From the IMG/VR virus record IMGVR_UViG_3300016476_000987: a stretch of 64,000 bases of DNA; one strand, written 5' to 3'. The notes beneath the pieces are model-generated. The model was not told the DNA's origin, made no database searches, and worked only from the letters and a program-made list of their open reading frames with translations. Shown piece by piece: positions 12,177-30,999 of the stretch. The DNA is from a virus. Lineage: Duplodnaviria; Heunggongvirae; Uroviricota; Caudoviricetes. Position 1 is the first letter of the stretch; each line of letters starts with the position of its first letter. The position numbers and the translations under genes are program-made.

Positions 12177-12181
12177 TAGTT

Positions 12182-14485
12182 ATGTTTGATAAGAAGTATG
12201 TTTTGGTAAATAGTGAGGAATCGCTAATAGAAATGGTTTCTCATATTAAATCTTTTAATATTATATCTTTTGATACGGAAACTACTTCTTTAAATCCAAG
12301 GAAAGGCAATATAGTGGGATTGTCCGTATCTGCTGAAGTAGGGATAGGCTATTATATGCCTACTTATTTGATGAAAGAAGGAGAGCTTGTTGAAGCAGAA
12401 ATTGCCGGTACTTCTTGTAAAGAGTTAGCCAGAAAGACCTTTAACTTATTGAAAAAGAAAAAGTTAGTAGGTCATAATCTATCTTTTGACTGTAGGTTTG
12501 TTTATCACGAATATGGTATAGACTTAGTTCCAAGCATTTACGCTGATACTTTATTGTTAGTACACACAGTATCTGAAGAAGGTATTGGCGTAGGCGGATC
12601 TTTTGCTCTTAAAGAAATTGCTAAAGGCATACAAGAGCATATAGGATTAGACATGGATAAAGAGGCTAACGAAGAACAGATAGAACTGAAGGCCTCTATA
12701 AAAGCTAATGGAGGGTCTACTACTAAAGAAAACTACGAAATCTACAAGGCAGATATAGATATTCTGTGTAAGTATGCTTGCGCAGATACTGACTTGACTC
12801 TTAGGGTATTTAATCACTTCTCCGACATACTAAAGGAAGAAAAACTAGAGTCTTTCTTTTATGAAGAAGAGGTTATGCCTTTGTATAAAGAAGTAACCAT
12901 TCCTATGGAAATGAACGGAGTTCTATTAGATATAGAACTCATGGAATCATCTAGAAAAGAAATAAAAGAAGACCTAGCTAAATACAAAAAGTTAGTTATT
13001 TCAGAACTTCTTAAAGATGATAGAGTTAGGGATTGGGTAGTAGCGAAAGCCATAACAGAGTTCCCAACCAGCAATAAAGGGAGGTTTGTCCAAGAATTGA
13101 TAAAAGTAACCGGCCAGGAATTCCCAGTATCTGCTAAAACCGGAAAATACTTAGTAAATGCTACTAATGTAAAATTGTGTGCTAATGAAGAGACTAAAGA
13201 GTTTCTTCTTACGGGAGATCCTAGTCTTATAGATGAAAATCTGTCCCTTAAAATAAGCATATCTTTATGGAAGGAAACTCAAGACGGAGATTTCTTTAAC
13301 ATACAATCCAAAGATCATTTAGGTCAAATAGCTTTTACTGCACTAGGAATGACTCCTATATCTACTACAGATAAAGGAAAGGCTCAATTCGATGATGATT
13401 TTATTCAATCCATCTCTGATAAACATGAGTGGGCTAAGAACTTACGCATATACAATAAACTGCTGAAGATAAAGTCTACATACATGGACCGGTTCCTTGA
13501 AAAGCAAGAGAATGGGATGTACTACTTTTACTATAAGCAGCATGCCACAGTATCCGGAAGATATGGATCAGACGCTCAACAGCTACCCAGACCTAAAGAA
13601 GAAGGAGAAGAGGACCCTATTGTACTGAAATACAATAATCTTATACGGGCTTTCTTTATATCAAAACCAGGGAACGTGTTTATTGATTGTGACTATGAGT
13701 CTTTGGAGCCTAAAGTATTCTCTCATGTATCTGGAGATGAAGGATTAAAGGACATTTTTAAGAATAATTGGGACTTTTACTCTACGATTGCTATAAAAAC
13801 TGAGAAGCTGCATCAGTACTCACCTGACAAAAAGGCACCCAACTACCTAAAGAAACTGGCAAATGATGTAAGACAGAAGGCTAAGGCATACTCTTTGGGG
13901 ATTGCTTATGGCATGGGAGCCTATGCTTTAGGTAAAAATATCAACGTTTCTACCAAAGAAGCAGAGAAGCTTGTCGAAGGTTATCTAAATGGGTTTCCTG
14001 AATTGAAAAGGTGGATGGAAGAATCCAGAGAGTTTGTAAAGAAAAACGGCTATATTAAAACTCAAGTAGGAAGAGTTCGACATTTATCAAAAGTTTCCTA
14101 TCTTTACAAGAAGTTTGGAGATAATCTTTTAGAATGGGATTATCAAAGAAAGCTAGAAGAAAAGCTAGGTAAAGACTTGGTTGTGAATATGGTAAGGGAT
14201 TATAAGAACGGTTTGAATAATGCAATGAACGTACAGATTCAAGGCTTAGCAGCATCTATTGTTAATAGGTCTGCTATAGCTATAAACCGTGCTTTTAAAG
14301 AAGCCGGAATAAAAGGACAAGTAATTGCACAGATTCATGACCAGTTAGTTATGGAAGTAGAAGAGGCAAGAGCGGAGGAGGCATCTAAAATAGTACAGGA
14401 TAAGATGGAAAACACAATCAATCTTACTGTAGAATTGAAAGCTCCTCCTGCTCTTGCTCATAATCTTAGAGATGGTCATGGCTAA
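12182..14485 (+). CDS. polA: DNA polymerase I (family A) with 3'-5' exonuclease domain
   Basis: Exo I ISFDTETTSL; motif A DCDYESLEPKVF; motif B RQKAKAYSLGIAYGMG; motif C QIHDQLVMEV. Confidence 0.95.
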   Translation: MFDKKYVLVNSEESLIEMVSHIKSFNIISFDTETTSLNPRKGNIVGLSVSAEVGIGYYMPTYLMKEGELVEAEIAGTSCKELARKTFNLLKKKKLVGHNLSFDCRFVYHEYGIDLVPSIYADTLLLVHTVSEEGIGVGGSFALKEIAKGIQEHIGLDMDKEANEEQIELKASIKANGGSTTKENYEIYKADIDILCKYACADTDLTLRVFNHFSDILKEEKLESFFYEEEVMPLYKEVTIPMEMNGVLLDIELMESSRKEIKEDLAKYKKLVISELLKDDRVRDWVVAKAITEFPTSNKGRFVQELIKVTGQEFPVSAKTGKYLVNATNVKLCANEETKEFLLTGDPSLIDENLSLKISISLWKETQDGDFFNIQSKDHLGQIAFTALGMTPISTTDKGKAQFDDDFIQSISDKHEWAKNLRIYNKLLKIKSTYMDRFLEKQENGMYYFYYKQHATVSGRYGSDAQQLPRPKEEGEEDPIVLKYNNLIRAFFISKPGNVFIDCDYESLEPKVFSHVSGDEGLKDIFKNNWDFYSTIAIKTEKLHQYSPDKKAPNYLKKLANDVRQKAKAYSLGIAYGMGAYALGKNINVSTKEAEKLVEGYLNGFPELKRWMEESREFVKKNGYIKTQVGRVRHLSKVSYLYKKFGDNLLEWDYQRKLEEKLGKDLVVNMVRDYKNGLNNAMNVQIQGLAASIVNRSAIAINRAFKEAGIKGQVIAQIHDQLVMEVEEARAEEASKIVQDKMENTINLTVELKAPPALAHNLRDGHG

Positions 14486-14514: not shown

Positions 14515-15279
14515 ATGAATAATAACTACGTTGTTTACCAACATAGAAGATTAGATAATAATCAAATTTTTTATGTTGGACAAGGATTGTTAAGCAGAGC
14601 TTATCAAAATCAAGTGAACAGAAGAAACACTAATTGGATAAAAGTAGTCAAAGAAGCAGGAGGATTTATAGTAGATATATTAAAAGAAGGACTTAGTAAA
14701 GAGGAGTCTTTGATTATAGAATCTGAGTATATAAAAAAATATGGAACTATAAAACATAACACTGGAATTCTTGTAAATGAAAGACTGTCCGGGAGTAGAG
14801 GAGTAAAAAGTGGCTACACCCACTCTGAAGAAAAAAGAAAAGAGATAAGCGAAAAAACAAAAAAAGCCATGCAAAATCCGGAAACAAAAAAAAGATTAAT
14901 AGAAAGTCATTTAAAATATTGGGAAAATTCGGAAAATCATATAAAAGCTTCTATTTCTACTAAAGGAGTTCATGCTGGCAGTAAACACCCAATGTACGGT
15001 AAAACTCATTCGGAAGAGTCTAAAGATAAAATGTCAAAAGCTAAATTAGGAAAAAAAAGATCTTTAGAAGCAATTGAAAAATTAAAAAAAAGAATTCCTT
15101 GGAATAAAGGACTTAAAGGAGCATATAAACAAAAACAAGAGACTATAGAAAAAAGAAAAAATACTTTAAAAAATAGACCCTATACTCCTCAAAAAAAAGT
15201 AGAATGTCCTTATTGTAAATTAATAGGCGGTTTTACTAATATGAAAAGATATCACTTTGATAATTGCAAAAACAAATAA
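14515..15279 (+). CDS. GIY-YIG homing endonuclease with NUMOD3-like repeats and C-terminal zinc finger (I-TevI-like, free-standing)
   Basis: YVVYQH...IFYVGQG GIY-YIG core; repeated GKTHSEESKDKMSKA-type NUMOD3 motifs; CPYC...HFDNC. Confidence 0.85.
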   Translation: MNNNYVVYQHRRLDNNQIFYVGQGLLSRAYQNQVNRRNTNWIKVVKEAGGFIVDILKEGLSKEESLIIESEYIKKYGTIKHNTGILVNERLSGSRGVKSGYTHSEEKRKEISEKTKKAMQNPETKKRLIESHLKYWENSENHIKASISTKGVHAGSKHPMYGKTHSEESKDKMSKAKLGKKRSLEAIEKLKKRIPWNKGLKGAYKQKQETIEKRKNTLKNRPYTPQKKVECPYCKLIGGFTNMKRYHFDNCKNK

Positions 15280-18200: not shown

Positions 18201-18376
18201 ACATAGATGAGATAAATGACAAAATAAAGATTTGTCAACAAAAAATTAACAGTTGCAGTGAAAGATTAGAAGCCGTAACTGATTCCAATACTTCTATGGA
18301 TGAGTACAATAATATCGTCCTGGAATTAGATAAAGCTATAGACGAACTTACTGAACTGATTAAAATCATAGAATGA
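18197..18376 (+). CDS. small coiled-coil protein (59 aa), ATGA overlaps with both neighbours
   Basis: ATG at 18197 overlaps upstream TGA; stop overlaps next ATG at 18373; below the 60-aa ORF-track cutoff. Confidence 0.35.
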   Translation: MNIDEINDKIKICQQKINSCSERLEAVTDSNTSMDEYNNIVLELDKAIDELTELIKIIE

Positions 18377-19308
18377 AAGAGTTCCTGGGTATTTCTGAAG
18401 AGATAAAGAATAAAATAAGAGAAGGGAAGAGGAGCGATCAAAAGAATATTTCTTTTAGTCAATTCTCGGTTTACGAATCTTGTCCGTACCGTTGGTACCT
18501 TACTTATGCTAAGGGAAACTATCTGTTTTCGGCTAGCATAAATACTGTATTTGGTACAGCTATTCATGAAGCTCTTCAGGAATACCTCAGGATCTTATTT
18601 GAAGTAAGTGCTAAAGAAGCAGATCGTTCTGATATTTTAGGCATATTTGAAACCTCTTTTAAAAGAGAGTACTTAAAAGAAGTAGAAAGTAATGGAGGAG
18701 TTCATTTTTCTAATAAAATAGAAATGATGGAGTTCTATGAAGATGGAGTACAAATATTAGAACAGTTTAGAAAAAAAAGGCAGCAGTTCTTTTCTAATAG
18801 AAAGCAAGAACTTTTAGGAATGGAAATTCCTTTATTAGTAGAAATAAAGGAAGACACTGATACTTTTTTATTCAATGGATTTATTGATTTAATTTATCGA
18901 GATAAAGAAGACGGTACGATTTACATAGAAGATATAAAAACATCCACAAAAGGCTGGTCTAAATATGAAAAGTCAGATGAGACCAAACTTTCACAGCTTC
19001 TTCTATATAAAAACTTCTTTTCTAAGCAATATGGATTTGACAAGAAAGATATTGTCCCCCAGTTCAGAATTCTAAAAAGAAAGCTTTGGGAAAATGCAGA
19101 ATTCCCTCAGAGCAGGATACAAACTCATGAGCCAGCGAATGGTACAGCAAAAGTAAATAATGCAGTACAAAGGCTTAATGTGTTCATCAATGAATGTTTT
19201 AATATTGATGGTACGCCTAAAGAAAAAGAGTATCCTAAAAAACCTTCCACTAATAATTGTAGATTTTGTCCTTTTAAAGATAGGCCGGATTTGTGCAATA
19301 AAAAGTAA
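18373..19308 (+). CDS. PD-(D/E)xK nuclease with Fe-S cluster cysteines (Cas4/RecB-like exonuclease)
   Basis: N-terminal ESCPYRW Cys; GFIDLIYRDKEDGTIYIEDIKTS (D..EDIK PD-ExK core); C-terminal CRFCPFKDRPDLC. Confidence 0.7.
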   Translation: MKEFLGISEEIKNKIREGKRSDQKNISFSQFSVYESCPYRWYLTYAKGNYLFSASINTVFGTAIHEALQEYLRILFEVSAKEADRSDILGIFETSFKREYLKEVESNGGVHFSNKIEMMEFYEDGVQILEQFRKKRQQFFSNRKQELLGMEIPLLVEIKEDTDTFLFNGFIDLIYRDKEDGTIYIEDIKTSTKGWSKYEKSDETKLSQLLLYKNFFSKQYGFDKKDIVPQFRILKRKLWENAEFPQSRIQTHEPANGTAKVNNAVQRLNVFINECFNIDGTPKEKEYPKKPSTNNCRFCPFKDRPDLCNKK

Positions 19309-19364
19309 GTAATTTCTTTCGTTTTTGCATATTTGTATATATTTATATATACAAACTGTATATT

Positions 19365-19562
19365 ATGCGAAGCGAAAACTTAAAACTTACTTCCGTAAAA
19401 ATACATAAGGATTTAGCTGACAACTTTAAAGTTGAAAGTGCGTTGACTGGTTTTTCGTTGCAAAAACTGGTCAATCGGAGTTTGCACCTGTTTATGACAG
19501 ATCCAGACTTCAAAGTAAAACTTATGTCTTATAGCACACTCTCACCGAGCGGAAGTCTTTAA
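19365..19562 (+). CDS. hypothetical small protein
   Basis: ORF only. Confidence 0.35.
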   Translation: MRSENLKLTSVKIHKDLADNFKVESALTGFSLQKLVNRSLHLFMTDPDFKVKLMSYSTLSPSGSL

Positions 19563-19574
19563 AAGAAATGATTT

Positions 19575-21014
19575 ATGAAAGAAGGTTATATTAAAAAAGA
19601 AGATAGAAAAAAGATTTTATTAATCTCAGACGACATTAGATTTTTTTCCGGTATCGCCACAGTGTCCAGGGAAATTGTTATTGGAACAGCACATCATTAT
19701 AACTATGTATGTATCTGTGCTGCTCTGCAACATCCGGACAAAGGCAAAAGAATGGACCTTAGCGAATCCACAAACCAAATAACTGGTATTACAGATTCAG
19801 ATGTTACTATTTACCCTTATGATGGTTATGGGGATGCCGATTTTGTAAGAAATTTGATAAAATACGAGAAGCCTGATGCTCTGTTTTTTGTAACAGATCC
19901 CAGGTATTACACTTGGCTTTTTGAAATAGAGAATGAAATTAGGAAAAAAATCCCAATGATTTATTTGCAGATTTGGGATTGCGAACCGGCTCCTCTTTAT
20001 AATAGAGAGTTCTATCGTAGTTGCGATGCCTTATTAGCTATTTCTAAACAAACAGAAATACTTAATAAAGTAGTGTTAGGTAAATACCAAGAAGATTGTC
20101 TTATTAAATATGTTCCTCATGGTATTAACAGTAACATGTTTTTTAAGATAGACTCAGGACATGAAAAGTATGAAGAGCTACAAAACTTTAGAAAAGATTT
20201 ATTCGGTAAAAAAGATTTTCAATTTGTAGTCCTTTTTAACAGTAGAAACATTCGTAGAAAATCTCTCCCGGATACTATTGTAGCTTTTAAATTATTACTG
20301 GACTCTATGTCTCCTGAAGAAGCGGATAAGTGCTGCTTAGTGCTTCATACACATCAAGTAGATGAAAATGGAACTGATCTACCAGCAGTAATTGAAGTAT
20401 TTTTAGGGGACAGGAAAGACCAAGTAATCTTTTCTAACCCTGGATTAGACACCGGTAGAATGAACCTTCTGTATAATCTTGCAGATGTTACAGTACTAAT
20501 AAGTAGTAACGAAGGATGGGGCCTCTCTTTAACAGAGAGCCTAATGTCTGGCACCATGATTATTGCGAACGTAACAGGAGGCATGCAAGATCAAATGAGG
20601 TTTGAAGACGAGAATGGAGATTGGATAGAGTTCACAGAGTCTTTCTGTTCTAATCATTTTGGAAAGTATAAGAATTGTGGAGAATGGGCTATCCCTGTAT
20701 TTCCTTCTAATATTAGTATCCAAGGATCTGTGCCTACTCCTTACATCGCTGACGACAGAGCAGACTTTAGAGACGTTGCTAATGCTATGAAGCAAGTATA
20801 CGGTATGTCTAAAGAAGAAAGGATTAGCAGAGGAATGAAAGGACGAGAGTGGGTAACTTCAGACGAGGCTATGATGACTGCTGATAATATGTGTAAAAAC
20901 GTCATAGAAGCAGTAGATCAAACTATAGAGGAGTTCAGCCCTAGAAAAAAATATTATATCATAAACACAAATGATAGAGATAAGAAAACTCTTGCTTTCC
21001 CTCTTTCTTTATAA
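19575..21014 (+). CDS. glycosyltransferase, GT-B fold (GT4-like)
   Basis: EX7E motif SSNEGWGLSLTESLMSGTMIIA. Confidence 0.7.
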   Translation: MKEGYIKKEDRKKILLISDDIRFFSGIATVSREIVIGTAHHYNYVCICAALQHPDKGKRMDLSESTNQITGITDSDVTIYPYDGYGDADFVRNLIKYEKPDALFFVTDPRYYTWLFEIENEIRKKIPMIYLQIWDCEPAPLYNREFYRSCDALLAISKQTEILNKVVLGKYQEDCLIKYVPHGINSNMFFKIDSGHEKYEELQNFRKDLFGKKDFQFVVLFNSRNIRRKSLPDTIVAFKLLLDSMSPEEADKCCLVLHTHQVDENGTDLPAVIEVFLGDRKDQVIFSNPGLDTGRMNLLYNLADVTVLISSNEGWGLSLTESLMSGTMIIANVTGGMQDQMRFEDENGDWIEFTESFCSNHFGKYKNCGEWAIPVFPSNISIQGSVPTPYIADDRADFRDVANAMKQVYGMSKEERISRGMKGREWVTSDEAMMTADNMCKNVIEAVDQTIEEFSPRKKYYIINTNDRDKKTLAFPLSL

Positions 21015-21022
21015 TATTAGTT

Positions 21023-21991
21023 ATGATAAAAAGAGCATTAATTACCGGGATCAACGGTATGGATGGTAGTCATTTAGCGGATTTACTATTGACTAAAGGA
21101 TATGTTGTGTATGGTATGGAAAGACGAAAGTCTGTAAAACAAAATACTAACACAAAACATCTAGAAGGGAAAGTTAACTTTTTAGTTGGAGATCTAACAG
21201 ATCAAAATTCTTTAGTAAGAGCTTTAGTAGAATCTGATCCTCATGAAGTGTATAATTTAGCTGCACAGTCTTTTGTAGGAGAGAGTTGGAATACCCCAGA
21301 GCAAACTTCTGATGTAACTGGTTTAGGAGTTCTTAGGGTGTTAGAGGCAATCAGAATGTATGATAAATACAATAAGATTAGATTCTATCAAGCCTCTTCT
21401 TCTGAGATGTTTGGTAGAATGGTAGAGAATCCGGCTACCGAACAAACTCCTTTTTATCCTAGAAGTCCTTATGGAGTAGCCAAGCTATATGGACATTGGA
21501 TAACTAAGAATTATAGAGAGTCTTATAACATGTTCACTTGCAGCGGTATTCTTTTCAATCATGAATCTGAAAGAAGAGGATTAGAATTTGTAACCAGGAA
21601 AATAACTAACGGAGTAGCTAAAATACAAAAAGGATTGGCCGACAGTATTTCTTTGGGAAATCTAGATGCAAAAAGAGATTGGGGATATGCTCCTGATTAT
21701 GTAGAAGCTATGTGGGCCATGTTACAAAGAGATACTCCGGATGATTATGTTATATCTACAGGAAATACTTACAGTGTAAGAGACTTTCTAGACGTTGCTT
21801 TTCAAACAGTAGGAATTTCTAATTGGGAACCCTATGTTAAAATAGACCCTAAGTTTTTTAGACCGGCAGAAGTAGATGTCCTAAGAGGACATTCAGGTAA
21901 AGCTAGAGCCTCTTTAGGTTGGTACCCTAAAACTTCTTTTGAAGATATGGTAAAGATTATGGTTAATAATGATATTAAATTACTAAACTAA
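21023..21991 (+). CDS. gmd: GDP-mannose 4,6-dehydratase
   Basis: ALITGINGMDGSHLADLLLTKGYVVYGMERR Rossmann N-terminus typical of Gmd; SPYGVAKLYGHW (YxxxK); ILFNHESERRG. Confidence 0.9.
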   Translation: MIKRALITGINGMDGSHLADLLLTKGYVVYGMERRKSVKQNTNTKHLEGKVNFLVGDLTDQNSLVRALVESDPHEVYNLAAQSFVGESWNTPEQTSDVTGLGVLRVLEAIRMYDKYNKIRFYQASSSEMFGRMVENPATEQTPFYPRSPYGVAKLYGHWITKNYRESYNMFTCSGILFNHESERRGLEFVTRKITNGVAKIQKGLADSISLGNLDAKRDWGYAPDYVEAMWAMLQRDTPDDYVISTGNTYSVRDFLDVAFQTVGISNWEPYVKIDPKFFRPAEVDVLRGHSGKARASLGWYPKTSFEDMVKIMVNNDIKLLN

Positions 21992-21992
21992 T

Positions 21993-23303
21993 ATGAATAA
22001 GTTATCGTGTGTAGTAGCCAGTCCAATTGATACATTTAGCGGATATGGTGTTATGGCTAGAAATTTTGCAAAAGCTCTTCTTAAAATAAGGAAAGACGAA
22101 TGGGATATTAAATTCTTGTCTTTGAGATGGGGAATGACTCCTTTTGGAGCATTAGATGAATCTGATCCTTCAGATGCAGAGATTATGAGTCTAATTATCC
22201 CAGACGGACAACTAAAATATAAACCAGATATTTGGTTTCAGATTAGCGTGTCTGAAGAGTTTACTCCTGTAGGAACGGTAAATATTGGGTACTCTTGTTT
22301 AGTAGAGACTACCATTCTTCCTGGGGAAATGCTTGAAGGGCTCAATAGAATGAATTTTAATCTTGTTTCTTGTGAGCATGCAAAAACTATTGCTACATCT
22401 ACTTCATGGGATAAAGTAGACCAAAATCAGAAAAAAATAGGAGAGTTAGTACTAGAAAAGCCAGTAGAAACTTTATTTATTGGGCTTGATACAGATAAGT
22501 TTAAGAAGCCTAAATCGGTATCTTTTGATCTTTCTAACATTAAAGAATCTTTTTGTTTTTTATCAGTAGGGCATATGCTTCCCGGAGCTGTAGAGTTAGA
22601 AGATCGAAAAATGATGGGAAGATTAATTAAAACTTTCTTAGAGACTTTTAAAGATAAAAAAAACAAACCTGCTCTTATACTTAAAACAGCAACCTCAGGT
22701 TATTCTTATGTAGACCAAGAAAGGACGTTATCTATTATAGACAAAATTAAAAGTACTGTATCAGGAAAAGACCTCCCAAATATTTACCTAATTCATGGAG
22801 AATTAAGTGAACAGGAACTTTGTGAGCTATATTCTCATGATAAAGTAAAAGCTTTTGTACTAACCGGCAACGAAGGTTTTGGTCTACCTTACATAGAATT
22901 TTCAGCAGTATCAGGAAAACCTTTGATTGTGTCTCCCTGGAGCGGTCATTTAGATTTTTTAGATAAAGAATTTAACACTTTTGTATTTGGGGCTATAGAG
23001 CAAATTCACCCAGCAGCAGCAAATAAGTATTTACTAAGAGAGGCTGCGTGGTATAAACCTGATGTAAAAGATCTTTCGGACAAACTTGTAGACATGCATA
23101 AGAATTATTCTAAGTATGTAGACAACGGAAAAAGACAAGGATTTAAATCTAGAACAGAATTTACTATTGATAAGATGGCTGAGAAATTAGACGATATTCT
23201 TAAAACTAATATTCCTCCTATTAGCAAACCCGTTCCCTTATCTTTACCTAAACTAGTTGATATAAAAAAGCCTAACTTTGACTATCTAGAAGAATCTAAA
23301 TAA
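21993..23303 (+). CDS. glycosyltransferase, GT-B fold (GT4-like)
   Basis: EX7E motif TGNEGFGLPYIEFSAVSGKPLIV. Confidence 0.6.
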   Translation: MNKLSCVVASPIDTFSGYGVMARNFAKALLKIRKDEWDIKFLSLRWGMTPFGALDESDPSDAEIMSLIIPDGQLKYKPDIWFQISVSEEFTPVGTVNIGYSCLVETTILPGEMLEGLNRMNFNLVSCEHAKTIATSTSWDKVDQNQKKIGELVLEKPVETLFIGLDTDKFKKPKSVSFDLSNIKESFCFLSVGHMLPGAVELEDRKMMGRLIKTFLETFKDKKNKPALILKTATSGYSYVDQERTLSIIDKIKSTVSGKDLPNIYLIHGELSEQELCELYSHDKVKAFVLTGNEGFGLPYIEFSAVSGKPLIVSPWSGHLDFLDKEFNTFVFGAIEQIHPAAANKYLLREAAWYKPDVKDLSDKLVDMHKNYSKYVDNGKRQGFKSRTEFTIDKMAEKLDDILKTNIPPISKPVPLSLPKLVDIKKPNFDYLEESK

Positions 23304-23310
23304 ATAAAGT

Positions 23311-23511
23311 ATGAACTCTAAAGAATTTGTAATTTGGTTAAAAGGATTTGTAGCCGCAGCAAATGAATATAATATAACTCCTAAGCAATTTGAACAAATT
23401 GTAGAGCAGTTGAGTAAAGTATCGGAAGGTACTAATGTATACTACGGAACTACTATTACAGGAGTTTCAAGCACTTCTCCAGTGTCAAAAACAAACACAT
23501 TAAACGGATAA
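23311..23511 (+). CDS. hypothetical small protein
   Basis: ORF only. Confidence 0.35.
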   Translation: MNSKEFVIWLKGFVAAANEYNITPKQFEQIVEQLSKVSEGTNVYYGTTITGVSSTSPVSKTNTLNG

Positions 23512-23513
23512 TA

Positions 23514-23957
23514 ATGTCAGATCAATTAACTACTTGTAGAAAATGCGGATCTCCTCTATGTTATGAAAGACATACAGAGAGTATCATCTTCTGGGACTGT
23601 TTACAATGTGGCTATAGCACTAACACCCTTCTTTTAGTAAACACAGAAGCCGTGTTCTCTTATGAATCTATGGTACCTAGACTATTTCAGGATATTAAGT
23701 ATGTAGACAGTGATGGGCTAGTTTGGTTTCCTACCACTGTAACTAAAGAAGGAGTAGGGATTATTTTTCCAGATGGAACCAATAAAGATGATTGGAAGTG
23801 GGCAGTAGCTAGACATGTGCCGGTAGAAGAAGCAGAAAAAGAGAGATTTAAAAAGAAAGATGGGACATATCATACCTATAAAACGGATATGAAAAATGTT
23901 CTTCATTTTGATAAAGAGTATTTTTCTAAAGCATTAGAATCGTTAGGATTTATTTAA
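23514..23957 (+). CDS. zinc-ribbon domain protein
   Basis: CRKCGSPLC...CLQCGYS. Confidence 0.45.
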   Translation: MSDQLTTCRKCGSPLCYERHTESIIFWDCLQCGYSTNTLLLVNTEAVFSYESMVPRLFQDIKYVDSDGLVWFPTTVTKEGVGIIFPDGTNKDDWKWAVARHVPVEEAEKERFKKKDGTYHTYKTDMKNVLHFDKEYFSKALESLGFI

Positions 23958-23967
23958 TAAAGTAATT

Positions 23968-24591
23968 ATGGTAAGCGTATCATATTGTATTACAGTTCAT
24001 AATGAAGGCTCTATGTATTTAGAGCCTCTTTTTCAAAAGCTATTTAAGTATTTACAACCGGAAGATGAGATTGTAGTAGTAGATGATATGTCTGATGAAG
24101 AGACTACTATCGCTACTCTTTCTAAATACGAAGATAGAATCAATTATTATAAGCATAAGTTTGAAGGAAATTTTGCTAATCATAAGAACTTTGCAAAATC
24201 AAAATGTACTAAGGATTATATATTCTTTATAGATGCTGATGAAAATATGCACGATAATCTTCTGCTTACTTTAAAAGAAGTGCTTTACAATAATCCTACC
24301 GTAGAAATGTACATGGTACCAAGAATTAATATAGTTCCTGGATTGACTGAGGAACATAAGAAAGCTTGGGGGTGGGTAACTAATGAAAAAGGGTGGATAA
24401 TGTTTCCGGATTATCAGACTCGAATTATTAAAAACTTGTCTAGTATTAACTGGGAAGGGAAAGTACATGAAAGATTGTCCGGACACACCGTTCATACAGC
24501 ATTGCCTCACGAAACAGAAGACTATTGTCTATTGCATATCAAAGATATAAAAAGACAAGAAGCGCAAAATAATCTATATAACAGTTTATGA
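23968..24591 (+). CDS. glycosyltransferase family 2
   Basis: VSYCITVHNEG ... IVVVDDMSDE ... FFIDADE (DxD). Confidence 0.75.
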   Translation: MVSVSYCITVHNEGSMYLEPLFQKLFKYLQPEDEIVVVDDMSDEETTIATLSKYEDRINYYKHKFEGNFANHKNFAKSKCTKDYIFFIDADENMHDNLLLTLKEVLYNNPTVEMYMVPRINIVPGLTEEHKKAWGWVTNEKGWIMFPDYQTRIIKNLSSINWEGKVHERLSGHTVHTALPHETEDYCLLHIKDIKRQEAQNNLYNSL

Positions 24592-25502
24592 AAATCGTAT
24601 TTCATAGCAATCAACTAGGAATCAGAGGCACAGAAGTAGCTTTATACGATTATGCGCACTATAATGAATCTATACTGGGAAATATTTCTTATATAGCTGC
24701 TCCGGTGTACTCAGACATGCAGGCGCATGAAAAATTTAAAAATAGATTTAAAGATAGAGTACTATTATACGGTACTTTAGATGAACTGCGTTCTTATAAT
24801 TTTGACGTAGCTTATTTTATAAAGGCAGGATATAATGATGGAAAATTAATTGAAGGAGCTAAAAACATAGTTCATTATGTGTTTGATGGATCTGCTCCTC
24901 ATGGAGATGCTTATGTTGGAGTAAGTGAGTGGTTATCTAAAAAATACAATACAGAGTTTCTCCCCCACATAGTATCCCTCCCAGAAGTAGATTATTCTTA
25001 TAGAGAATACTTAGGTATCTCAAAAGAAGATATTGTGTTTGGTAGATATGGAGGACTAGATCAATTTGATGTTTCTTACTTGAGAGAATCAGTAGAAGCT
25101 GCTGCCGATACAGGTATCAAGTTTCTTTTTATGAACACTTCTGTTTTTACAATAGATCATCCTAATATCATATACTTAACTCCTTCTTATGAATTAGAAA
25201 CTAAGTCTGCTTTTATAAACAGTTGCGATGCTATGCTTCATGGTAGAACAGAAGGAGAAACCTTTGGTTTATCTATTTGTGAGTTCTTGTATTTTAATAA
25301 ACCGGTAGTAACTAACATAATTTGTAGAGATAGAAATCACATAGAATTATTAAAAGACAAAGGATTTTATTACACAAATGCAAATGAGTTATATTCTATA
25401 TTAGTGAATTTTACTAAAAAAGATTATAGCGTAAAACAGCTAGTACAAAAGTATAGCCCAGAAGAAGTTATTAATAAATTTAAAAATTTATATAATGGAT
25501 AG
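24588..25502 (+). CDS. glycosyltransferase, GT-B fold-like
   Basis: EX7E-like GRTEGETFGLSICEFLYFNKPVV. Confidence 0.5.
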   Translation: MKIVFHSNQLGIRGTEVALYDYAHYNESILGNISYIAAPVYSDMQAHEKFKNRFKDRVLLYGTLDELRSYNFDVAYFIKAGYNDGKLIEGAKNIVHYVFDGSAPHGDAYVGVSEWLSKKYNTEFLPHIVSLPEVDYSYREYLGISKEDIVFGRYGGLDQFDVSYLRESVEAAADTGIKFLFMNTSVFTIDHPNIIYLTPSYELETKSAFINSCDAMLHGRTEGETFGLSICEFLYFNKPVVTNIICRDRNHIELLKDKGFYYTNANELYSILVNFTKKDYSVKQLVQKYSPEEVINKFKNLYNG

Positions 25503-26178
25503 AGTATTTCAGAATTATCATAGAGTATATAATTATTTTTCTCCAAAATCTTATTTAGATATAGGGGCTTGCAAAGGACATCACATTCCATACGTTTTAC
25601 AAATCTTAAAAGATTTGAATAAAATAGAATTAATAGAAGCTTGTAGATATCATGAATATGATTTAAAATTATTACAAAACAGTTTTTTTACAAAAAATAT
25701 TTCTTATAAAATAGAAGTACTGTCTGATTGTGTAAAGGAAGTAGACTTCTACTTATCTGGCCTAGAGGAACAAGGCTCCGGTGGGACCGGTAACTCTTAT
25801 TACAAAGAGGATACTCCTCATTATGTAAACTGCGTAATAGAAAAAAGAATAACTAATACTTTAGACATATTGTATAAATACGAAGAGCCTTTTGATCTAA
25901 TTAAAATGGATACTCAAGGTAGTGAGTTGGATATAATAAAAGGAGGATTAAACATAATATCTAATGCTAAAGGTATTATATTAGAAGAAAACGTAGTTAC
26001 TTTTAATACCGGCGCTCCTTTGCATTATGAAGTAAAGCCTTATATGGAATCTATTGGATTTGTATTATGCGAAATATTAGATGAAAAAAACTATCCTATT
26101 AATAATAGTAAAGGAGTGCTTACTCCTCATCATGAAATAGACACGCTTTATATTAGAAAAGACGTGCTTAATCTTTAA
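25495..26178 (+). CDS. FkbM-family methyltransferase
   Basis: DIGACKGHH and FDLIKMDTQGSELDIIKGG match FkbM pattern (DIGAN.G ... LLKIDVEGAELEVLKG). Confidence 0.75.
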   Translation: MDRVFQNYHRVYNYFSPKSYLDIGACKGHHIPYVLQILKDLNKIELIEACRYHEYDLKLLQNSFFTKNISYKIEVLSDCVKEVDFYLSGLEEQGSGGTGNSYYKEDTPHYVNCVIEKRITNTLDILYKYEEPFDLIKMDTQGSELDIIKGGLNIISNAKGIILEENVVTFNTGAPLHYEVKPYMESIGFVLCEILDEKNYPINNSKGVLTPHHEIDTLYIRKDVLNL

Positions 26179-26186
26179 TATATACT

Positions 26187-27065
26187 ATGAAAATATGTTT
26201 TGTTTATGATTATGAATCTGAGCTTTTGTCTCCTGCTCAATCTTTAATAAACGAATTTATTAGACGGAGTTGTTTAGTATCTAGAGTACATCTATCAAAC
26301 ACTTTAAATTTTCACAAAGCATTAATAGCAAACTACTACGATATTATCATTATCCTGGACAAAACTGGTACTGATATTCCACAAATTATTCACAATCAGA
26401 TTTCTAAGGACATTTTTAAAATCAGAGATTGTGGGGGCACTCCTCAAAAATATGAAGCACATTTACCGCATATAAAAAATTATAATATGTTGCTGACTTC
26501 TGACTATGTCTCCTGTCAGAAGTATATGGCTGAAGGAATCCCCTGTTTATGGTTTAATCATTTTGCGGATACTGATATTCATAAAATATACGAGGGAGAG
26601 GATAGAATGCCTCCTGTACGCTCTACAATGGGCCAAGAAGGCTCTAAAATAGTCGATGCGCTGTCTACCCTTATGCCAAATAAATTTGTCAATAAAAGCG
26701 ATCTAATAGGCTCAGAATACGGGCGCTTTTTAGGGCAAGGAAAAATAGTAGTTCATCACAGTAGGAACGAACAGATCAGCCATAAAATTTTTGAAGCAAT
26801 GGCCTGTAAAAAACTAGTCATTACTGACCGTCTTCCTGAGCATACCCGGATAGCGGACTTATTTGAAGAAGGAAAAGACATCGTTTTTTATGATGATTTT
26901 TCTGATCTCATTTCAAAAATAAACTACTATCTTTGCCCTGAGGGGGAAAGGGGGAGAGAGGATATAGCTATTAGTAGCTATACTAAAGTAATAAATAGTC
27001 ATACTGAGTATAATAGAGTAAATAGTATTATAAGTAGTTATAATAATTGGAAAAATAATCTATAG
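26187..27065 (+). CDS. glycosyltransferase, GT-B fold-like (C-terminal domain motif)
   Basis: SRNEQISHKIFEAMACKKLVITD (EX7E + EAMAC motif). Confidence 0.5.
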   Translation: MKICFVYDYESELLSPAQSLINEFIRRSCLVSRVHLSNTLNFHKALIANYYDIIIILDKTGTDIPQIIHNQISKDIFKIRDCGGTPQKYEAHLPHIKNYNMLLTSDYVSCQKYMAEGIPCLWFNHFADTDIHKIYEGEDRMPPVRSTMGQEGSKIVDALSTLMPNKFVNKSDLIGSEYGRFLGQGKIVVHHSRNEQISHKIFEAMACKKLVITDRLPEHTRIADLFEEGKDIVFYDDFSDLISKINYYLCPEGERGREDIAISSYTKVINSHTEYNRVNSIISSYNNWKNNL

Positions 27066-27072
27066 TATTATT

Positions 27073-27909
27073 ATGAAAACATTTGATTGTTTTACTTTTT
27101 TTAATGAAATAGATCTACTAAAGATAAGATTAGAGCTTCTTAAAGATGTAGTAGACTATCATGTCATTGTAGAAAGTAATCTAACGTTTAGTGGTTTAAA
27201 TAAAAACTACATATTAGAAGATCACTGGAATGATTTTATAGATTGGAAGAATAAGTTAATTTATATAAAAATAGAACAGTCTAAAGAGGGATTAGAATTT
27301 AGAAAAGTAAATAGCTACTCTCCAGATAACGGAAGTTGGATATTAGAATATCAGCAAAGAAATAGTTTACAGAACGTGTCAGATATAGTAAATGACAATG
27401 ACGTTTTATTGATAGGAGACGTAGACGAAATTCCTGATCCGGAAGCTGTATTAGCTTTAAAAGAATATTTAAAGTCTGGGTACCCTATAGCATTGTCTAT
27501 GCTGTTTCATTACTACTATATGAATTGCCAGAATGTAGGATATGAAAGATATTGGAACGGTACTGTAGGATGTAAGGGAGTTGATTTTAAAAATAATACT
27601 CCTCAACAATTTAGAGATAAAAGGAACAACTATCAAAGATTCTCTAACGGAGGATATCATTTTTCTTTCTTAGGAGGAGTAGAAAAGATTAGAACTAAGA
27701 TCCAGTCTTTTGCTCATACTGAGTTTAATAGAGAAGACATTCTATCAGAAGAAAATATAGTAGAATCTATAGAGAAAGGTAAAGACGTATTCAACAGACC
27801 TGGGGTTTCTTATGAGTTTGTAGATCCTTATCAATATCCGCAAAGAATAAGAGAGTTAATGTTTAAGTATCCTCATTTAATGAAATATGAAAATAAAAGA
27901 TCTAGTTAA
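27073..27909 (+). CDS. glycosyltransferase family 17-like
   Basis: N-terminus FDCFTFFNEIDLLKIRLELLKDVVDYHVIVESNLTFSG matches the GT17 (PF04724) signature FNE.DLLE.RL.EL...VD.FVIVES..TF.G. Confidence 0.65.
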   Translation: MKTFDCFTFFNEIDLLKIRLELLKDVVDYHVIVESNLTFSGLNKNYILEDHWNDFIDWKNKLIYIKIEQSKEGLEFRKVNSYSPDNGSWILEYQQRNSLQNVSDIVNDNDVLLIGDVDEIPDPEAVLALKEYLKSGYPIALSMLFHYYYMNCQNVGYERYWNGTVGCKGVDFKNNTPQQFRDKRNNYQRFSNGGYHFSFLGGVEKIRTKIQSFAHTEFNREDILSEENIVESIEKGKDVFNRPGVSYEFVDPYQYPQRIRELMFKYPHLMKYENKRSS

Positions 27910-28720
27910 TAAATCAGTATTTGGTACAATAGCAACTATAAGAGACGAGTTTTCGATAAGGAAACTCGATCTTTTTTTACAGTATAACCTACCATTCATT
28001 TTAGAATTTAAAGATAGAGTAGTGATAGCTGTAAATAAAATGGAGCACACTCCGGAACAAGTAGTAAAACAATACAAAGAAGTATTAGAATGTAATATTC
28101 CTGGCTGCGTAATTATAGAAACAGATAACCGGGGCCATATGTTTGGGACTATAGATTTAGAAGAGTCTGTATTAAAATATACAAAGAGACTTTTCCCAGA
28201 AGCAGAATATTTATTTAAGTCGATGGATGATGTTATTACTTACCCATCTTTATTAGAAGTAGAGGTAGATCCGGCAGACTTCTATTATATCCCAGGATTT
28301 AGTTACGAATCTATTTTAAAAGCTGGTTCTAAAGAAAAATTAAGATCTATATATGAAACCTTTGAGAGCGGTTTTTGGACTCCTCAAACAACTTTTTTTA
28401 TTCTCCGTATCAATAACATTGATCTGCTTTATGGCGACGATATTGACTATAAACATAGTGTATATCTCGAAGCTAAAAGATCCCTACCTGAAATAAAGCC
28501 TTGGGAGATTCCCTTTGATATTAAATTTGACTGTGAGACTCACTTAGGTAGAACTGTAAAAGACATGGCTAAGTACTGTCTAATCAAGGACAAGTTCAAA
28601 GATCTACTAGATTTAGTAGAAACTATTCCTATAGGGGATCCGTCTCATAAGAATGTATTCTTTAAAGACATTGGAGTTTGTCATTATCATTATTATGAAT
28701 CTCATGTATTCGATCTGTAA
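27887..28720 (+). CDS. hypothetical protein (end of glycan island)
   Basis: ORF only. Confidence 0.45.
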   Translation: MKIKDLVNKSVFGTIATIRDEFSIRKLDLFLQYNLPFILEFKDRVVIAVNKMEHTPEQVVKQYKEVLECNIPGCVIIETDNRGHMFGTIDLEESVLKYTKRLFPEAEYLFKSMDDVITYPSLLEVEVDPADFYYIPGFSYESILKAGSKEKLRSIYETFESGFWTPQTTFFILRINNIDLLYGDDIDYKHSVYLEAKRSLPEIKPWEIPFDIKFDCETHLGRTVKDMAKYCLIKDKFKDLLDLVETIPIGDPSHKNVFFKDIGVCHYHYYESHVFDL

Positions 28721-28745
28721 TCGATATATACCATATTTATAGACG

Positions 28746-29534
28746 ATGGAAACTTTAATGCAATTATTACTAGAAGCGCCAATTACTCCTGATCAGGTAA
28801 ATAAATTCTTATTGCCTAGAGATAACCAGGTTAGTATCTTCTATGATAAGAAATGGATTTCTGTAGAACCGGTAAGGGTACAGGAAATAGACGGGGAAGA
28901 TTACTTAATTGCATTTGAAGTATCAGACCCTCAAGCTAAGACTCCAGTTAGATACGAACTTAAAAAAATAACCAATTGGAACGTACTTAGTAAAAAATCT
29001 GCTGATAGAGCTAAGAAAGAAAAACAGAAAGGAGTAGTTAAAATAAAATCTGAGAAAAATAAAATAGTAGATTCTATAGTAAATAAAAGATATGTGAAGT
29101 TCTATTACAAGGGAGATAAGGAAAATAAACCGGGATATAGAACAAGCGTTCAGCCAGTATGTTACGGGGTGACCAATGGTAAAAAGTATCTTAGGGCATG
29201 GCAAGACGAAGGAGAGACTTATAGAGGTAAACTACCTAAAGACAACAAAGAGTATAGGCCTATGCCTGGCTGGAGGTTTTTTAGAGAAGATAGAATAAGC
29301 ATGAACACTTATCAAGAAACAGGAAAAAATTTTACTGTTCCTCCTAGAGCAGACTATAATCCTACCGGCGATAAACATATAAATGATGTTATAGCTATTG
29401 CTAAGTTTGATACTGGTAACAAACCTCCTCCTGTTCCGGAGGAACCAAAGGCACCTGCTCCAACAAAAGGAAAGAAGAAGTTACAAGAAAATAAAATAAT
29501 AAGTGCTATCTTAGAGGCTGTGAGAATTTTATAA
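28746..29534 (+). CDS. hypothetical protein, Lys/Pro-rich C-terminus
   Basis: ORF only. Confidence 0.45.
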   Translation: METLMQLLLEAPITPDQVNKFLLPRDNQVSIFYDKKWISVEPVRVQEIDGEDYLIAFEVSDPQAKTPVRYELKKITNWNVLSKKSADRAKKEKQKGVVKIKSEKNKIVDSIVNKRYVKFYYKGDKENKPGYRTSVQPVCYGVTNGKKYLRAWQDEGETYRGKLPKDNKEYRPMPGWRFFREDRISMNTYQETGKNFTVPPRADYNPTGDKHINDVIAIAKFDTGNKPPPVPEEPKAPAPTKGKKKLQENKIISAILEAVRIL

Positions 29535-29545
29535 AACTATGTAGT

Positions 29546-29896
29546 ATGAGAAGGAAGAACCCAAAAAGAACTGTCCCAACTTTAAACTATTATGTAAATT
29601 CTTTTAGTGATTACCAGACCATAAGTACGATGCAAGACACTAGGAAGTTAGTATTTAACAATCTTATAGAAGCTATAGAAGATAGCATGAGAAGCAAAAA
29701 AAACGAAGCTTCTATTTTTATGTTGGATTATGATCATTATGTAGCATTAAATAAAAGAAGTTGGAAAAAAAGCTTAAATACTGCTATTGAGTTTTTTTCT
29801 TCTGAGGGAGTAGAAGAGTATGAGATTTGTAAAAAGTGCGTAGATTTGATTAATAAAATAGACTCTGAAGAAAAAACAAAGGTTGAAGATGAGTAA
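29546..29896 (+). CDS. hypothetical protein
   Basis: ORF only. Confidence 0.4.
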   Translation: MRRKNPKRTVPTLNYYVNSFSDYQTISTMQDTRKLVFNNLIEAIEDSMRSKKNEASIFMLDYDHYVALNKRSWKKSLNTAIEFFSSEGVEEYEICKKCVDLINKIDSEEKTKVEDE

Positions 29897-30314
29897 AGAT
29901 TTTAATCCAGGTAATTCGCATCAAGAAAATGTTAAGATTGCTATAGATAATATTATAGGAGAGACTACCAATCTTAAAAAGAAAAAAAAGAATGATGCAG
30001 ATCAAAAAAGAATTCTATTCAAAAAAATTATAGAAGGGATTATCTCTGCGGAAGAGCGATCAATAATGTTAGATGAAGCTTTTTCTATTGATTTGAATAA
30101 ACACAATAGTTTATTTTTTGAAGTTATAGATAATTTTTTAAAGTATAATTTTACCAAAGAACAAATAAGACTAATAGATTTCTATTTGTACGATAGGTAT
30201 AGCGCAGATGGATCTGTCTTAGATCTTATGGATGATAATAAGAACGTAGTTAAATTAGATACAGCAGACGATTTGTGGTACTTAATAAAAGCTATGGAGA
30301 CAAATGCGAAGTAA
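29883..30314 (+). CDS. hypothetical protein
   Basis: ORF only. Confidence 0.4.
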   Translation: MKMSKDFNPGNSHQENVKIAIDNIIGETTNLKKKKKNDADQKRILFKKIIEGIISAEERSIMLDEAFSIDLNKHNSLFFEVIDNFLKYNFTKEQIRLIDFYLYDRYSADGSVLDLMDDNKNVVKLDTADDLWYLIKAMETNAK

Positions 30315-30999
30315 GGGATTTAGAAATGCGATTTCGCTGACTATAGATCGGTCGGATGTGGAGAGAGCTATAAGGAATAGCAAGTCTAATAGAGGCGCTG
30401 CTAGGTACTTAGGAGTAAGCGTAAAGACGTATAAGAAAGTAGCATCCCGGTATAGAACAGATGACGGAAAGACACTGTACGATATTCATTGCAACAAAGC
30501 AGCTGCCGGTATCCCAAAGTATTCTAATAGAAAATCTAGAGGCGATGCCTTAATGGATATTCTAGAGGGGAGAGCAAGCATGAAGTTTGTTTCTGTTAAG
30601 GAGATAAAGGCCAGGCTTATTGCTGAGGGATACATTAAAGAAGAGTGCTGCCGTTGTAAATACAACGAAAGAAGGTCCATAGATGAGAAAGTTCCTCTGT
30701 TGATAAATTATGTAGATGGAAACAAGAGGAACTGGCAATTAGAGAACTTACAATTACTATGTTATAATTGTTATTTTTTACACATAGGGGATGTGTTTCA
30801 GCAAAAACAAATAGATGCATTAGAAGATTTTCAGGTCCTACAAAGCAAACCGGTAAGCTTCGATCTTCCTAAAATGCAAGAAGAGAAGATCAAAGAGACT
30901 CTTAACCTGGACAATAGACACATATACAGTATAGACGAAGAAGAGGAGAGACCGGAGGATTACGGTAATGATTTAATAGCTGGCTATAAAAGAAAGTAG
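30304..30999 (+). CDS. HNH homing endonuclease with N-terminal helix-turn-helix
   Basis: CCRCKYNERRSIDEKVPLLINYVDGNKRNWQLENLQLLCYNCY (HNH: C..C...H/D...N...N...C..C); N-terminal ARYLGVSVKTYKKVA HTH. Confidence 0.8.
   Translation: MRSKGFRNAISLTIDRSDVERAIRNSKSNRGAARYLGVSVKTYKKVASRYRTDDGKTLYDIHCNKAAAGIPKYSNRKSRGDALMDILEGRASMKFVSVKEIKARLIAEGYIKEECCRCKYNERRSIDEKVPLLINYVDGNKRNWQLENLQLLCYNCYFLHIGDVFQQKQIDALEDFQVLQSKPVSFDLPKMQEEKIKETLNLDNRHIYSIDEEEERPEDYGNDLIAGYKRK

Follow-up and report, generated by a model that had tools for sequence, protein, structure and literature searches.

A glycan-gene island with a conserved core and a hypervariable cassette in a T4-like phage

What does a phage build with seven sugar transferases, and to what does it attach the product? 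The question is raised by a ~9-kb block of genes at positions 19575-28720 of a 64-kb stretch of viral DNA (IMG/VR record IMGVR_UViG_3300016476_000987, Caudoviricetes). The whole stretch is called the window here and the block is called the island. An earlier note on this DNA, made from its letters, had proposed a phage-encoded island for a multi-sugar, possibly O-methylated glycan, and our analysis upheld the proposal in its main points, with corrections. Searches with hidden Markov models (HMMs), the test that the earlier note had set for itself, supported the glycosyltransferase (GT), GDP-mannose 4,6-dehydratase (Gmd) and FkbM methyltransferase assignments in Pfam, PHROG and NCBIfam, and the block is not host-derived. 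The island consists of a virus-specific core that is conserved in order among related phages, followed by a cassette that differs from one phage to the next. For the acceptor of the glycan, the earlier note had allowed virion proteins, polysaccharide of the host surface and DNA alike; the evidence leans toward a phage-encoded, non-lipid one.

The phage to which the window belongs is a T4-like myovirus and kin of Flavobacterium phage vB_FspM_immuto (hereafter immuto; NC_055915, genus Immutovirus), a 160-kb T4-like myovirus that is its closest cultured relative at the protein level. PolA and GroEL are 53% and 54% identical between the two, the gene order is collinear, and the island is placed after PolA/GroEL in both. 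A megablast search of the island against 50,697 phage records gave no match; its relatives are detectable by protein only.

A conserved core followed by a hypervariable cassette

The island contains 12 open reading frames (ORFs), all on the + strand and either overlapping or separated by no more than 12 nt, which bears out the earlier description of a contiguous, co-oriented block. They encode seven transferases in total, four GT-B and three of GT-A type, together with Gmd and an FkbM methyltransferase that depends on S-adenosylmethionine (SAM) (Table 1). A GT2 with a DxD motif, a GT17-like enzyme, Gmd and the FkbM methyltransferase were found where the earlier note had placed them. Its four GT-B proteins with EX7E motifs (at 19575, 21993, 24588 and 26187) were also recovered, with the motif at the canonical position in the C-terminal domain in all four; its count of five to six such enzymes was too high, as there are four only. 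The two small ORFs for s66 and Zn147, the transferase identity of u277, and the division into a conserved core and a hypervariable cassette were absent from that note. Because seven transferases, a nucleotide-sugar enzyme and a methyltransferase share one packed block, the product is more plausibly an oligosaccharide than a mark of one to three sugars.

All island enzymes are acidic, with isoelectric points (pI) of 5.2-6.3. Membrane segments were not detected in the ORFs from 18373 to 30999, where no 19-residue Kyte-Doolittle window exceeds 1.6 (maximum 1.13), and no Pfam families for a phosphoglycosyl transferase, flippase (Wzx/GtrA), polymerase, ligase or membrane GtrB/GtrC were found in the island region. 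With no membrane segments and no initiating, flippase, polymerase, ligase or Gtr proteins, the island does not amount to a lipid-carrier pathway that could work by itself. Its content differs from that of a Wzx/Wzy- or ABC-dependent O-antigen or capsule locus and from that of a Gtr serotype-conversion module; it is a set of virus transferases with a nucleotide-sugar enzyme (seven transferases, Gmd and a methyltransferase) that is free of lipid-carrier and export functions.

The left part of the island is constant among its relatives. The conserved order is PD-(D/E)XK nuclease, s65, GTa, GTb, (s66), Zn147 and GT2, and immuto has the same order (gp183-gp178). Of the 49 related loci with enough sequence to judge, all carry GTa, GTb and Zn147, and 48 carry GT2. 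The 5-8 kb segment 3' of GT2 is hypervariable and ends at a conserved right flank, which comprises u116, u143 and an HNH endonuclease and begins at 29546 in the window. In the first 6 kb of the cassettes from 36 loci there are 103 protein clusters in 34 gene orders, with a median pairwise Jaccard index of 0.08. DegT/RfbH-type pyridoxal phosphate (PLP) enzymes occur in 25 loci, and Gmd and other short-chain dehydrogenase/reductase (SDR) enzymes in 27; GT2 and GT10-like transferases, methyltransferases and a nucleotidyltransferase are further cassette families.

The cassette of the window spans 24588-29534, and the GC content of 24588-28720 is 0.313 vs 0.347 around it. Homologues of GT304 are found at the same cassette position in five related loci (L003, L004, L005, L008 and L009). 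L003, the closest relative, also has an FkbM gene at the corresponding cassette position. Gmd is located between GTa and GTb only in the window and in L003; elsewhere it lies within the variable cassette.

GTa has relatives in at least 598 IMG/VR stretches, the best 80 of which are 56-72% identical. Among 185,579 reference genomes (one per species), GTa was found in a few contigs of metagenome-assembled genomes (MAGs) only. At least one such contig, 184.7 kb long and with a 52% identical GTa, looks like a binned phage genome. The core is virus-specific. A GTa homologue search of phage records returned 7 records only, and GTa is also present in three further phage lineages, those of Mel-JY01, RM378 and LR756508. 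Microcystis phage Mel-JY01 has a PD-(D/E)XK nuclease, GuaB, a split GTa, GTb (E 3.6e-154) and a GT2 homologue that is 37% identical, followed by a methyltransferase and more transferases. Its GTa (L083, 10007-11498) consists of two adjacent ORFs, WWT39373 and WWT39374, both strong matches to the GTa profile; the gene is either genuinely split or disrupted by a frameshift or sequencing error. Rhodothermus phage RM378 has GTa (E 3e-44) and two GT2-like ORFs after ribonucleotide reductase; its GTb-like neighbour is marginal (E 0.009 for a nominal database of 1e6 sequences), and we do not claim a GTa/GTb pair in this phage. The uncultured 484-kb genome LR756508 encodes a DNA methylase, ThyA, a PD-(D/E)XK nuclease, a SLOG protein and GTa in that order. 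At 3' of its GTa (L086, 296435-315685 of LR756508), a cytidylyltransferase of the CMP-sugar synthetase type (11626-12267) and a GT29-like sialyltransferase (12511-13443) suggest a glycan with a sialic-acid- or Kdo-type sugar.

Phage clusters with transferases and Gmd are already known, and the orthologous cluster is annotated in the GenBank records of immuto. We found no prior description in the searchable literature of the paralogous GT-B pair with GT2 and Zn147 as a virus-specific core shared by hundreds of phages from several host phyla, of its coupling to a hypervariable cassette, or of the Zn147, s66 and u277 families, and no literature analysis of the transferase clusters of immuto, Mel-JY01 or RM378.

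Table 1. Genes of the island, its neighbours and the thymidylate synthase, with positions in the window
Gene	Position	Strand	Assignment	Evidence
Nuclease	18373..19308	+	PD-(D/E)XK (Cas4/AddB-type) nuclease, conserved left neighbour	Pfam PDDEXK_1 3e-23
s65	19365..19562	+	Small basic protein	pI 9.5; conserved immediately 5' of GTa
GTa	19575..21014	+	Core GT-B (GT4-like)	EX7E residues 313-321; Glycos_transf_1 3.6e-8; PHROG 2170 1e-18
Gmd	21023..21991	+	GDP-mannose 4,6-dehydratase	Pfam GDP_Man_Dehyd 1e-128 over residues 6-313; NCBIfam equivalog TIGR01472 430.2 bits vs cut-off 415
GTb	21993..23303	+	Core GT-B	EX7E residues 294-302; PHROG 2170 6e-17; no Pfam match
s66	23311..23511	+	Small protein	Conserved 40-residue N-terminal domain; hypervariable Ser/Thr/Gly/Asn-rich tail
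Zn147	23514..23957	+	Core protein	N-terminal four-cysteine zinc ribbon and alpha/beta domain
GT2	23968..24591	+	Core GT2 (GT-A fold)	Glycos_transf_2 1e-16, 61.7 bits vs 23.3; DAD residues 94-96; no membrane domain
GT304	24588..25502	+	GT-B-like cassette transferase	EX7E residues 224-232; Glycos_transf_1 marginal, E 0.006
FkbM	25495..26178	+	FkbM-family SAM methyltransferase	PF05050 (Methyltransf_21) 7e-10, 39.8 bits vs 22.7; NCBIfam TIGR01444 39.2 vs 37.7
GT292	26187..27065	+	GT-B-type transferase	PF13524 Glyco_trans_1_2 9e-19; EX7E residues 195-203
GT17-like	27073..27909	+	GT17-like transferase	Glyco_transf_17 4e-30, 105.5 bits vs cut-off 26; DVD residues 121-123
u277	27887..28720	+	GT-A-fold transferase, the seventh	Fold search only
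WYL	28746..29534	+	WYL-domain protein, right end of variable segment	Pfam WYL 4e-7; pI 9.6
ThyA	41476-42651	+ region	Thymidylate synthase	C146, N177, R166, D169, Y94 and thymidylate-synthase C-terminus kept; NF002496 336.8 bits vs 325

Enzymes of the island, sugar supply and genomic setting

GTa scores above the Pfam cut-off, and its top relative in the PDB is B736L (GT4) of chlorovirus NY-2A (E 8.7e-15). B736L is also the second-best PDB relative of GTb (E 9.4e-5); it is a GDP-mannose-binding enzyme for which no acceptor is known (PMC9614988). Along their full length, GTa and GTb are distantly paralogous (hhalign probability 98%, E 2.9e-14, 17% identity), and both retain the catalytic motif. 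They do not form a GtfA/GtfB-type pair, as EX7E is kept in both and no chain with the name GtfA or GtfB is among the PDB matches; the likeness to GtfA/GtfB is one of logic only.

The four-cysteine ribbon of Zn147 is invariant, and no characterised relative was found for its fold, which is predicted confidently. s66 is annotated as a gene in the source assembly and occurs in 24 related loci (for example, L034:3190-3681 and L006:12717-13193). Its tail varies from 4 to 123 residues and often contains N-x-S/T motifs, and the C-terminal ...QLL(N)D is conserved. A role for s66 as an acceptor, carrier or accessory protein is speculative. s65 gave no match in Pfam and PHROG; it has homologues in essentially all related loci, with gp182 as the immuto counterpart. 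The nuclease is immediately 5' of the GTa region in nearly all related loci, and also in Mel-JY01 and the megaphage LR756508; its role as a working partner of the island is uncertain. In the cassette, u277 matched no Pfam or PHROG family and its sequence found nothing in the PDB. The WYL protein had no tblastn match in any related locus and is probably outside the glycan pathway.

The Gmd product, GDP-4-keto-6-deoxymannose, needs a reductase. The earlier note had remarked that Gmd has no partner, and indeed no SDR reductase, epimerase or aminotransferase for it was found among the window ORFs scanned. Completion could be provided by a host Fcl/Rmd, by a dual-activity Gmd, or by an unrecognised enzyme elsewhere in the genome. 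In many relatives, Gmd is accompanied by an Fcl-like SDR (167 bits, under the cut-off of 500) and an RfbH/ColD-type PLP dehydrase (440.9 bits vs an equivalog cut-off of 423), for example at L034:4731-7937, L055:14256-17468, L058:5621-8875 and L061:7502-10751. Such a trio leads to a GDP-3,6-dideoxyhexose such as colitose. A colitose-type enzyme set is unusual for phages, and the three-enzyme pathway is not complete in the window, where Gmd stands alone. Because many relatives have Gmd beside an Fcl-like reductase and an RfbH/ColD-type dehydrase, the lone Gmd is a lineage-specific reduction and not the rule. In chlorovirus PBCV-1, A118R acts as both dehydratase and reductase, and GDP-D-rhamnose is formed when NADPH is present (PMC9614988).

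Around the island, the + strand carries the ORFs up to ~50 kb, and both the coding strand and the GC skew flip near this point. Pfam and PHROG identified replication and nucleotide genes for SSB, a UvsX-like recombinase, an exonuclease, a DnaB helicase, ribonucleotide reductase, dUTPase and a family-A DNA polymerase, and further genes for GroES/GroEL, the PD-(D/E)XK nuclease, thymidylate synthase and a T4-gp1-like dNMP kinase. A scan of 15.5-33 kb for sigma-70 promoters and terminators gave fewer promoter-like sites than shuffled sequence.

A few other genes deserve mention. PolA is apparently encoded in two genes ~9 kb apart (1515-2852 and 12182-14485), as gp001 and gp199 in immuto. Next to the large part, on its 3' side, comes an ORF that contains a NUMOD3 motif (14515-15279), possibly a homing endonuclease. 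The ORF at 39391-39945 matches Pfam Tad3, a type I Thoeris inhibitor (E 1e-32), an anti-defence gene unconnected with the island. Proteins with a response-regulator receiver domain, an NlpC/P60 peptidase domain and a DnaA C-terminal helix-turn-helix are encoded at 43672-44400, 45228-45710 and 62997-63434 (-), respectively. A second SAM methyltransferase, which the earlier note had placed at 10714, was not confirmed: the ORF (10714-11295) has no Pfam or PHROG match, and its matches to O-methyltransferases in the PDB are non-significant (E 0.03-0.1). By eye it is class-I methyltransferase-like (LEFGVGAS), and the ORF at 9982-10641 is GT-A-like (FIVNRN..., TDSDC); both lie between ribonucleotide reductase and dUTPase. 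Neither assignment was accepted, as no significant match in Pfam, PHROG or the PDB was found for either.

The acceptor of the glycan

We tentatively favour the view that the island encodes a phage-autonomous cytoplasmic system, which attaches a lineage-specific oligosaccharide to an acceptor encoded by the phage. The acceptor would most likely be a protein of the virion or one associated with it. In such a system, the core (the retaining GT-B pair GTa/GTb and the soluble GT2) would start a conserved inner glycan directly on the acceptor, with no lipid carrier involved, and Zn147 could be an adaptor for the core transferases. The exchangeable cassette would then add outer, variable sugars, here through GT304, GT292, the GT17-like enzyme and u277. 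Gmd would provide a GDP-6-deoxyhexose precursor, to be finished by a reductase of the host or, as in chlorovirus PBCV-1, by Gmd itself. The FkbM methyltransferase, whose substrate is presumably a sugar, would carry out its O-methylation.

The distribution of the core bears on the acceptor. Phages of Bacteroidota, Cyanobacteria and Rhodothermus have the core in common, and a phage-encoded acceptor is therefore more plausible than a glycan of the host surface. The top PDB relative of the core GT2 is GmaR (E 2e-8), the Listeria flagellin O-GlcNAc transferase, which acts directly on protein. s66 is a possible acceptor; another is immuto gp064, which is 34% Ser/Thr and whose gene lies two positions downstream of that for the major capsid protein. 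Mycobacteriophages glycosylate their own capsid and tail-tube proteins by their own transferases (Freeman et al. 2023, as summarised in PMC12619734).

Several observations weigh against a virion protein as the acceptor. The island lies within the replication and nucleotide-metabolism region, beside a nuclease and outside the structural module. s66 is absent from about half of the loci, immuto included. The resemblance of the core GT2 to GmaR covers query residues 4-121 only, the half of the GT-A fold that binds the nucleotide, and it therefore says little on the acceptor. B736L, the best structural relative of GTa, is also a top HHpred match of the T4 DNA glucosyltransferases, alpha-gt included (PMC6024577). 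In addition, the window is 64 kb out of a ~184-kb contig (183,965 bp), so that about one third of the genome is visible. Which molecule receives the glycan, how the steps follow one another and which sugars are used we infer from the genes.

Some of these observations would fit DNA as the acceptor. The transferases would then glycosylate a hydroxylated base in replicated phage DNA, and the cassette would diversify the DNA glycan against restriction and modification-dependent nucleases. We consider this unlikely, although the location of the core agrees with it in all four lineages: the core is found among replication and nucleotide-metabolism genes. The PD-(D/E)XK nuclease adjoins it in LR756508 and the immuto-like clade, and a single gene separates the two in Mel-JY01. 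Its neighbour in RM378 is annotated as 'similar to DNA polymerase I', and in LR756508 a DNA methylase and a ThyA homologue are immediately upstream. The window also encodes the T4-gp1-like dNMP kinase and a dUTPase-family enzyme. However, an enzyme that would provide the acceptor hydroxyl (a ThyA-type hydroxymethylase, 5-hydroxycytosine synthase, dioxygenase/5mYOX/TET or C5-methyltransferase) was not found among the ORFs scanned in the window. The dUMP-specificity residue of thymidylate synthase is Asn177. The only ThyA homologue seen in the window has every thymidylate-synthase residue, Asn177 and the C-terminus among them, and scores above the equivalog cut-off; its active-site residues and equivalog score rule it out as a hydroxymethylase or 5-hydroxycytosine synthase. 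The LR756508 ThyA retains Asn177 as well. The window ThyA is 391 aa long, with ~125 inserted residues at three places, and the immuto ThyA (423 aa) has similar insertions and one more near its C-terminus. A tie between the island and the 7-deazaguanine (DpdA) system of immuto was also rejected, as no homologues of its DpdA genes were found where the window is syntenic with immuto.

The transferases themselves give a mixed picture. Phage multi-transferase clusters, even those with nucleotide-sugar synthesis, put mono- to trisaccharides on DNA (bioRxiv 10.1101/2023.12.21.572611; PMC13326640), and B736L-like GT-B enzymes are the nearest structural relatives of the T4 DNA glucosyltransferases (PMC6024577). 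On the other hand, the profiles of GTa and GTb gave no match to the T4 alpha- or beta-gt in the PDB (E up to 0.01 and 0.1, respectively), a comparison limited by the divergence of GT-B enzymes. The enzymes are all acidic, and seven transferases with O-methylation exceed what is known of DNA glycans, which have one to three sugars.

The base composition of the window is also relevant. Palindromic 4-mers and 6-mers are depleted, with observed/expected ratios (O/E) of 0.88 (p 3e-4) and 0.80 (p 1.4e-6), as for DNA readable by restriction enzymes. This is a weak hint that the DNA is still exposed to such enzymes. Non-palindromic words have an O/E of 1.00; CGCG occurs once vs 14 expected and CTGCAG 0 times vs 5, and CCGG is over-represented (147 vs 94). 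Together, the canonical ThyA and the depleted palindromes argue against bulk DNA hypermodification.

It is also doubtful that the island serves to remodel the host surface. For this, the soluble transferases would act on host undecaprenyl-linked intermediates at the inner membrane face and would use the initiating enzyme, flippase and ligase of the host. Lipopolysaccharide (LPS), capsule or a Bacteroidota O-glycan would be altered in infection, for instance against superinfection or against progeny adsorbing to debris. The Gmd-bearing 'LPS' clusters of T4-like cyanophages are usually read in this way. The sugars agree with this, being typical of O-antigens: Gmd is present in the window, Gmd with Fcl-like and RfbH/ColD-type enzymes in relatives, and the relatives also have DegT aminotransferases, a GT10-like fucosyltransferase and methyltransferases. 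The lower GC content of the cassette fits horizontal acquisition. The peripheral GT4/GT2 enzymes of O-antigen pathways likewise have no membrane segments, but in the island region an initiating transferase, flippase, polymerase or Gtr-type membrane protein is missing altogether, and, as far as the genome scan reached, cellular relatives of the core transferases were not detected. A shared host acceptor is unlikely, since the core is common to phages whose hosts belong to different phyla. Long-term serotype conversion also seems unlikely, since the scan of window ORFs revealed no integrase or repressor and the immuto annotation lists neither.

Improbable to us is a third alternative, in which the island is not one pathway and the core modifies a phage component, with the cassette genes being mobile auxiliary metabolic genes of separate roles and acceptors: core and cassette do contrast in evolution (49 of 49 loci vs a median Jaccard index of 0.08), RM378 has GTa and no comparable cassette, and the position of Gmd shifts between lineages, but every locus with enough sequence has a glycan-gene cassette directly 3' of the core GT2, core and cassette genes are packed without gaps on one strand, and single glycan pathways are usually laid out with a constant core and variable outer sugars. 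Host-derived DNA is rejected as an explanation for the island because its flanks are phage replication genes syntenic with those of immuto, and its core is nearly confined to viruses.

Known systems and significance

Glycosylation of a phage-encoded protein, the reading that we favour, can be compared with several known systems. The nearest is the cluster of immuto itself (gp183-gp169), which is syntenic and has the same nuclease, small protein, GTa (60% identical), GTb (47%), Zn147 (39%) and GT2 (42%). Its cassette differs wholly and consists of aminotransferases, an acetyltransferase-like 'pilin glycosylation protein', an epimerase, a mannosyltransferase and a GT2; Gmd, the GT17-like enzyme, FkbM and u277, all present in the window, are absent from immuto.

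Capsid N-glycans of chloroviruses, reportedly described by De Castro et al. in 2016, are said to have a conserved core and variable decoration. Like the island, the chloroviruses PBCV-1 and NY-2A and the Mimiviridae have virus-encoded soluble transferases, Gmd, sugar O-methyltransferases and clade-specific gene sets, and the glycogene clusters of mimiviruses are clade-specific (PMC9614988). The giant viruses differ in that they infect eukaryotes, that most of the chlorovirus enzymes are multidomain GT-A proteins, and that glycosylation of the capsid has been demonstrated; for the island, a protein acceptor is only an inferred one.

Virion glycosylation systems of mycobacteriophages have two to four transferases only, and to our knowledge no core/cassette organisation has been described for them. 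Systems of the Che8/Corndog type are a precedent among tailed phages and differ by their actinobacterial hosts. As proposed for the island, cytoplasmic phage transferases decorate structural proteins with no lipid carrier in these phages (Freeman et al. 2023, as summarised in PMC12619734).

Clusters for DNA glycans, such as the alpha/beta-gt of T-even phages, the poly-arabinosyl-5-hydroxycytosine system of RB69/DLP3 and the MT/5mYOX-GT systems, share with the island that phage transferases, sometimes with nucleotide-sugar genes, lie amid DNA-metabolism genes and are diversified (10.1101/2023.12.21.572611; PMC13326640; PMC6024577). They differ in having a base-hydroxylating enzyme, either a ThyA homologue acting on dCMP/dUMP or 5mYOX, none of which was found in the window. 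Their products have one to three sugars, whereas the island has seven transferases.

The 'LPS' clusters of T4-like cyanophages (P-SSM2, S-SKS1) are likewise found in large lytic myoviruses, with a Gmd that is 52-54% identical and with transferases in hypervariable regions. They have no GTa homologue, since the GTa search returned the 7 records only, and we know of no report of a conserved, virus-specific core in these clusters. Bacterial loci for O-antigen, capsule or protein glycosylation have the GT4, GT2, Gmd and FkbM families in common with the island (and RfbH/ColD and DegT with its relatives), and they too have constant and serotype-specific parts. In contrast to them, the island has no phosphoglycosyl transferase, flippase, polymerase, ABC transporter or oligosaccharyltransferase, and its core is virus-specific.

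Virus-encoded glycosylation has been studied in depth in the giant viruses that infect eukaryotes; its demonstration in mycobacteriophages is recent. With somewhat less assurance than for the single phage, we suggest that a widespread clade of T4-like aquatic phages may have self-contained protein glycosylation, in which the core would prime a phage protein, the exchanged cassette would set a virion glycan 'serotype', and s66 would possibly be the carrier. Such a system could be the bacteriophage counterpart of the glycan machinery of chloroviruses and mimiviruses. The island also adds two uncharacterised conserved families, Zn147 and s66, and a GT-A family, u277, that is without any HMM. If DNA were decorated instead, no known DNA glycan would come close to the product in complexity. 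In either case, the core is a sequence marker, with the GTa motifs VTGGMQDQ and SNEGWGLS, and the cultured immuto phages are an experimental system for the question of the acceptor. If virions are coated, glycan 'serotypes' would be a common and quickly exchanged trait of abundant aquatic phages, with a bearing on adsorption, particle stability, grazing and defence evasion.

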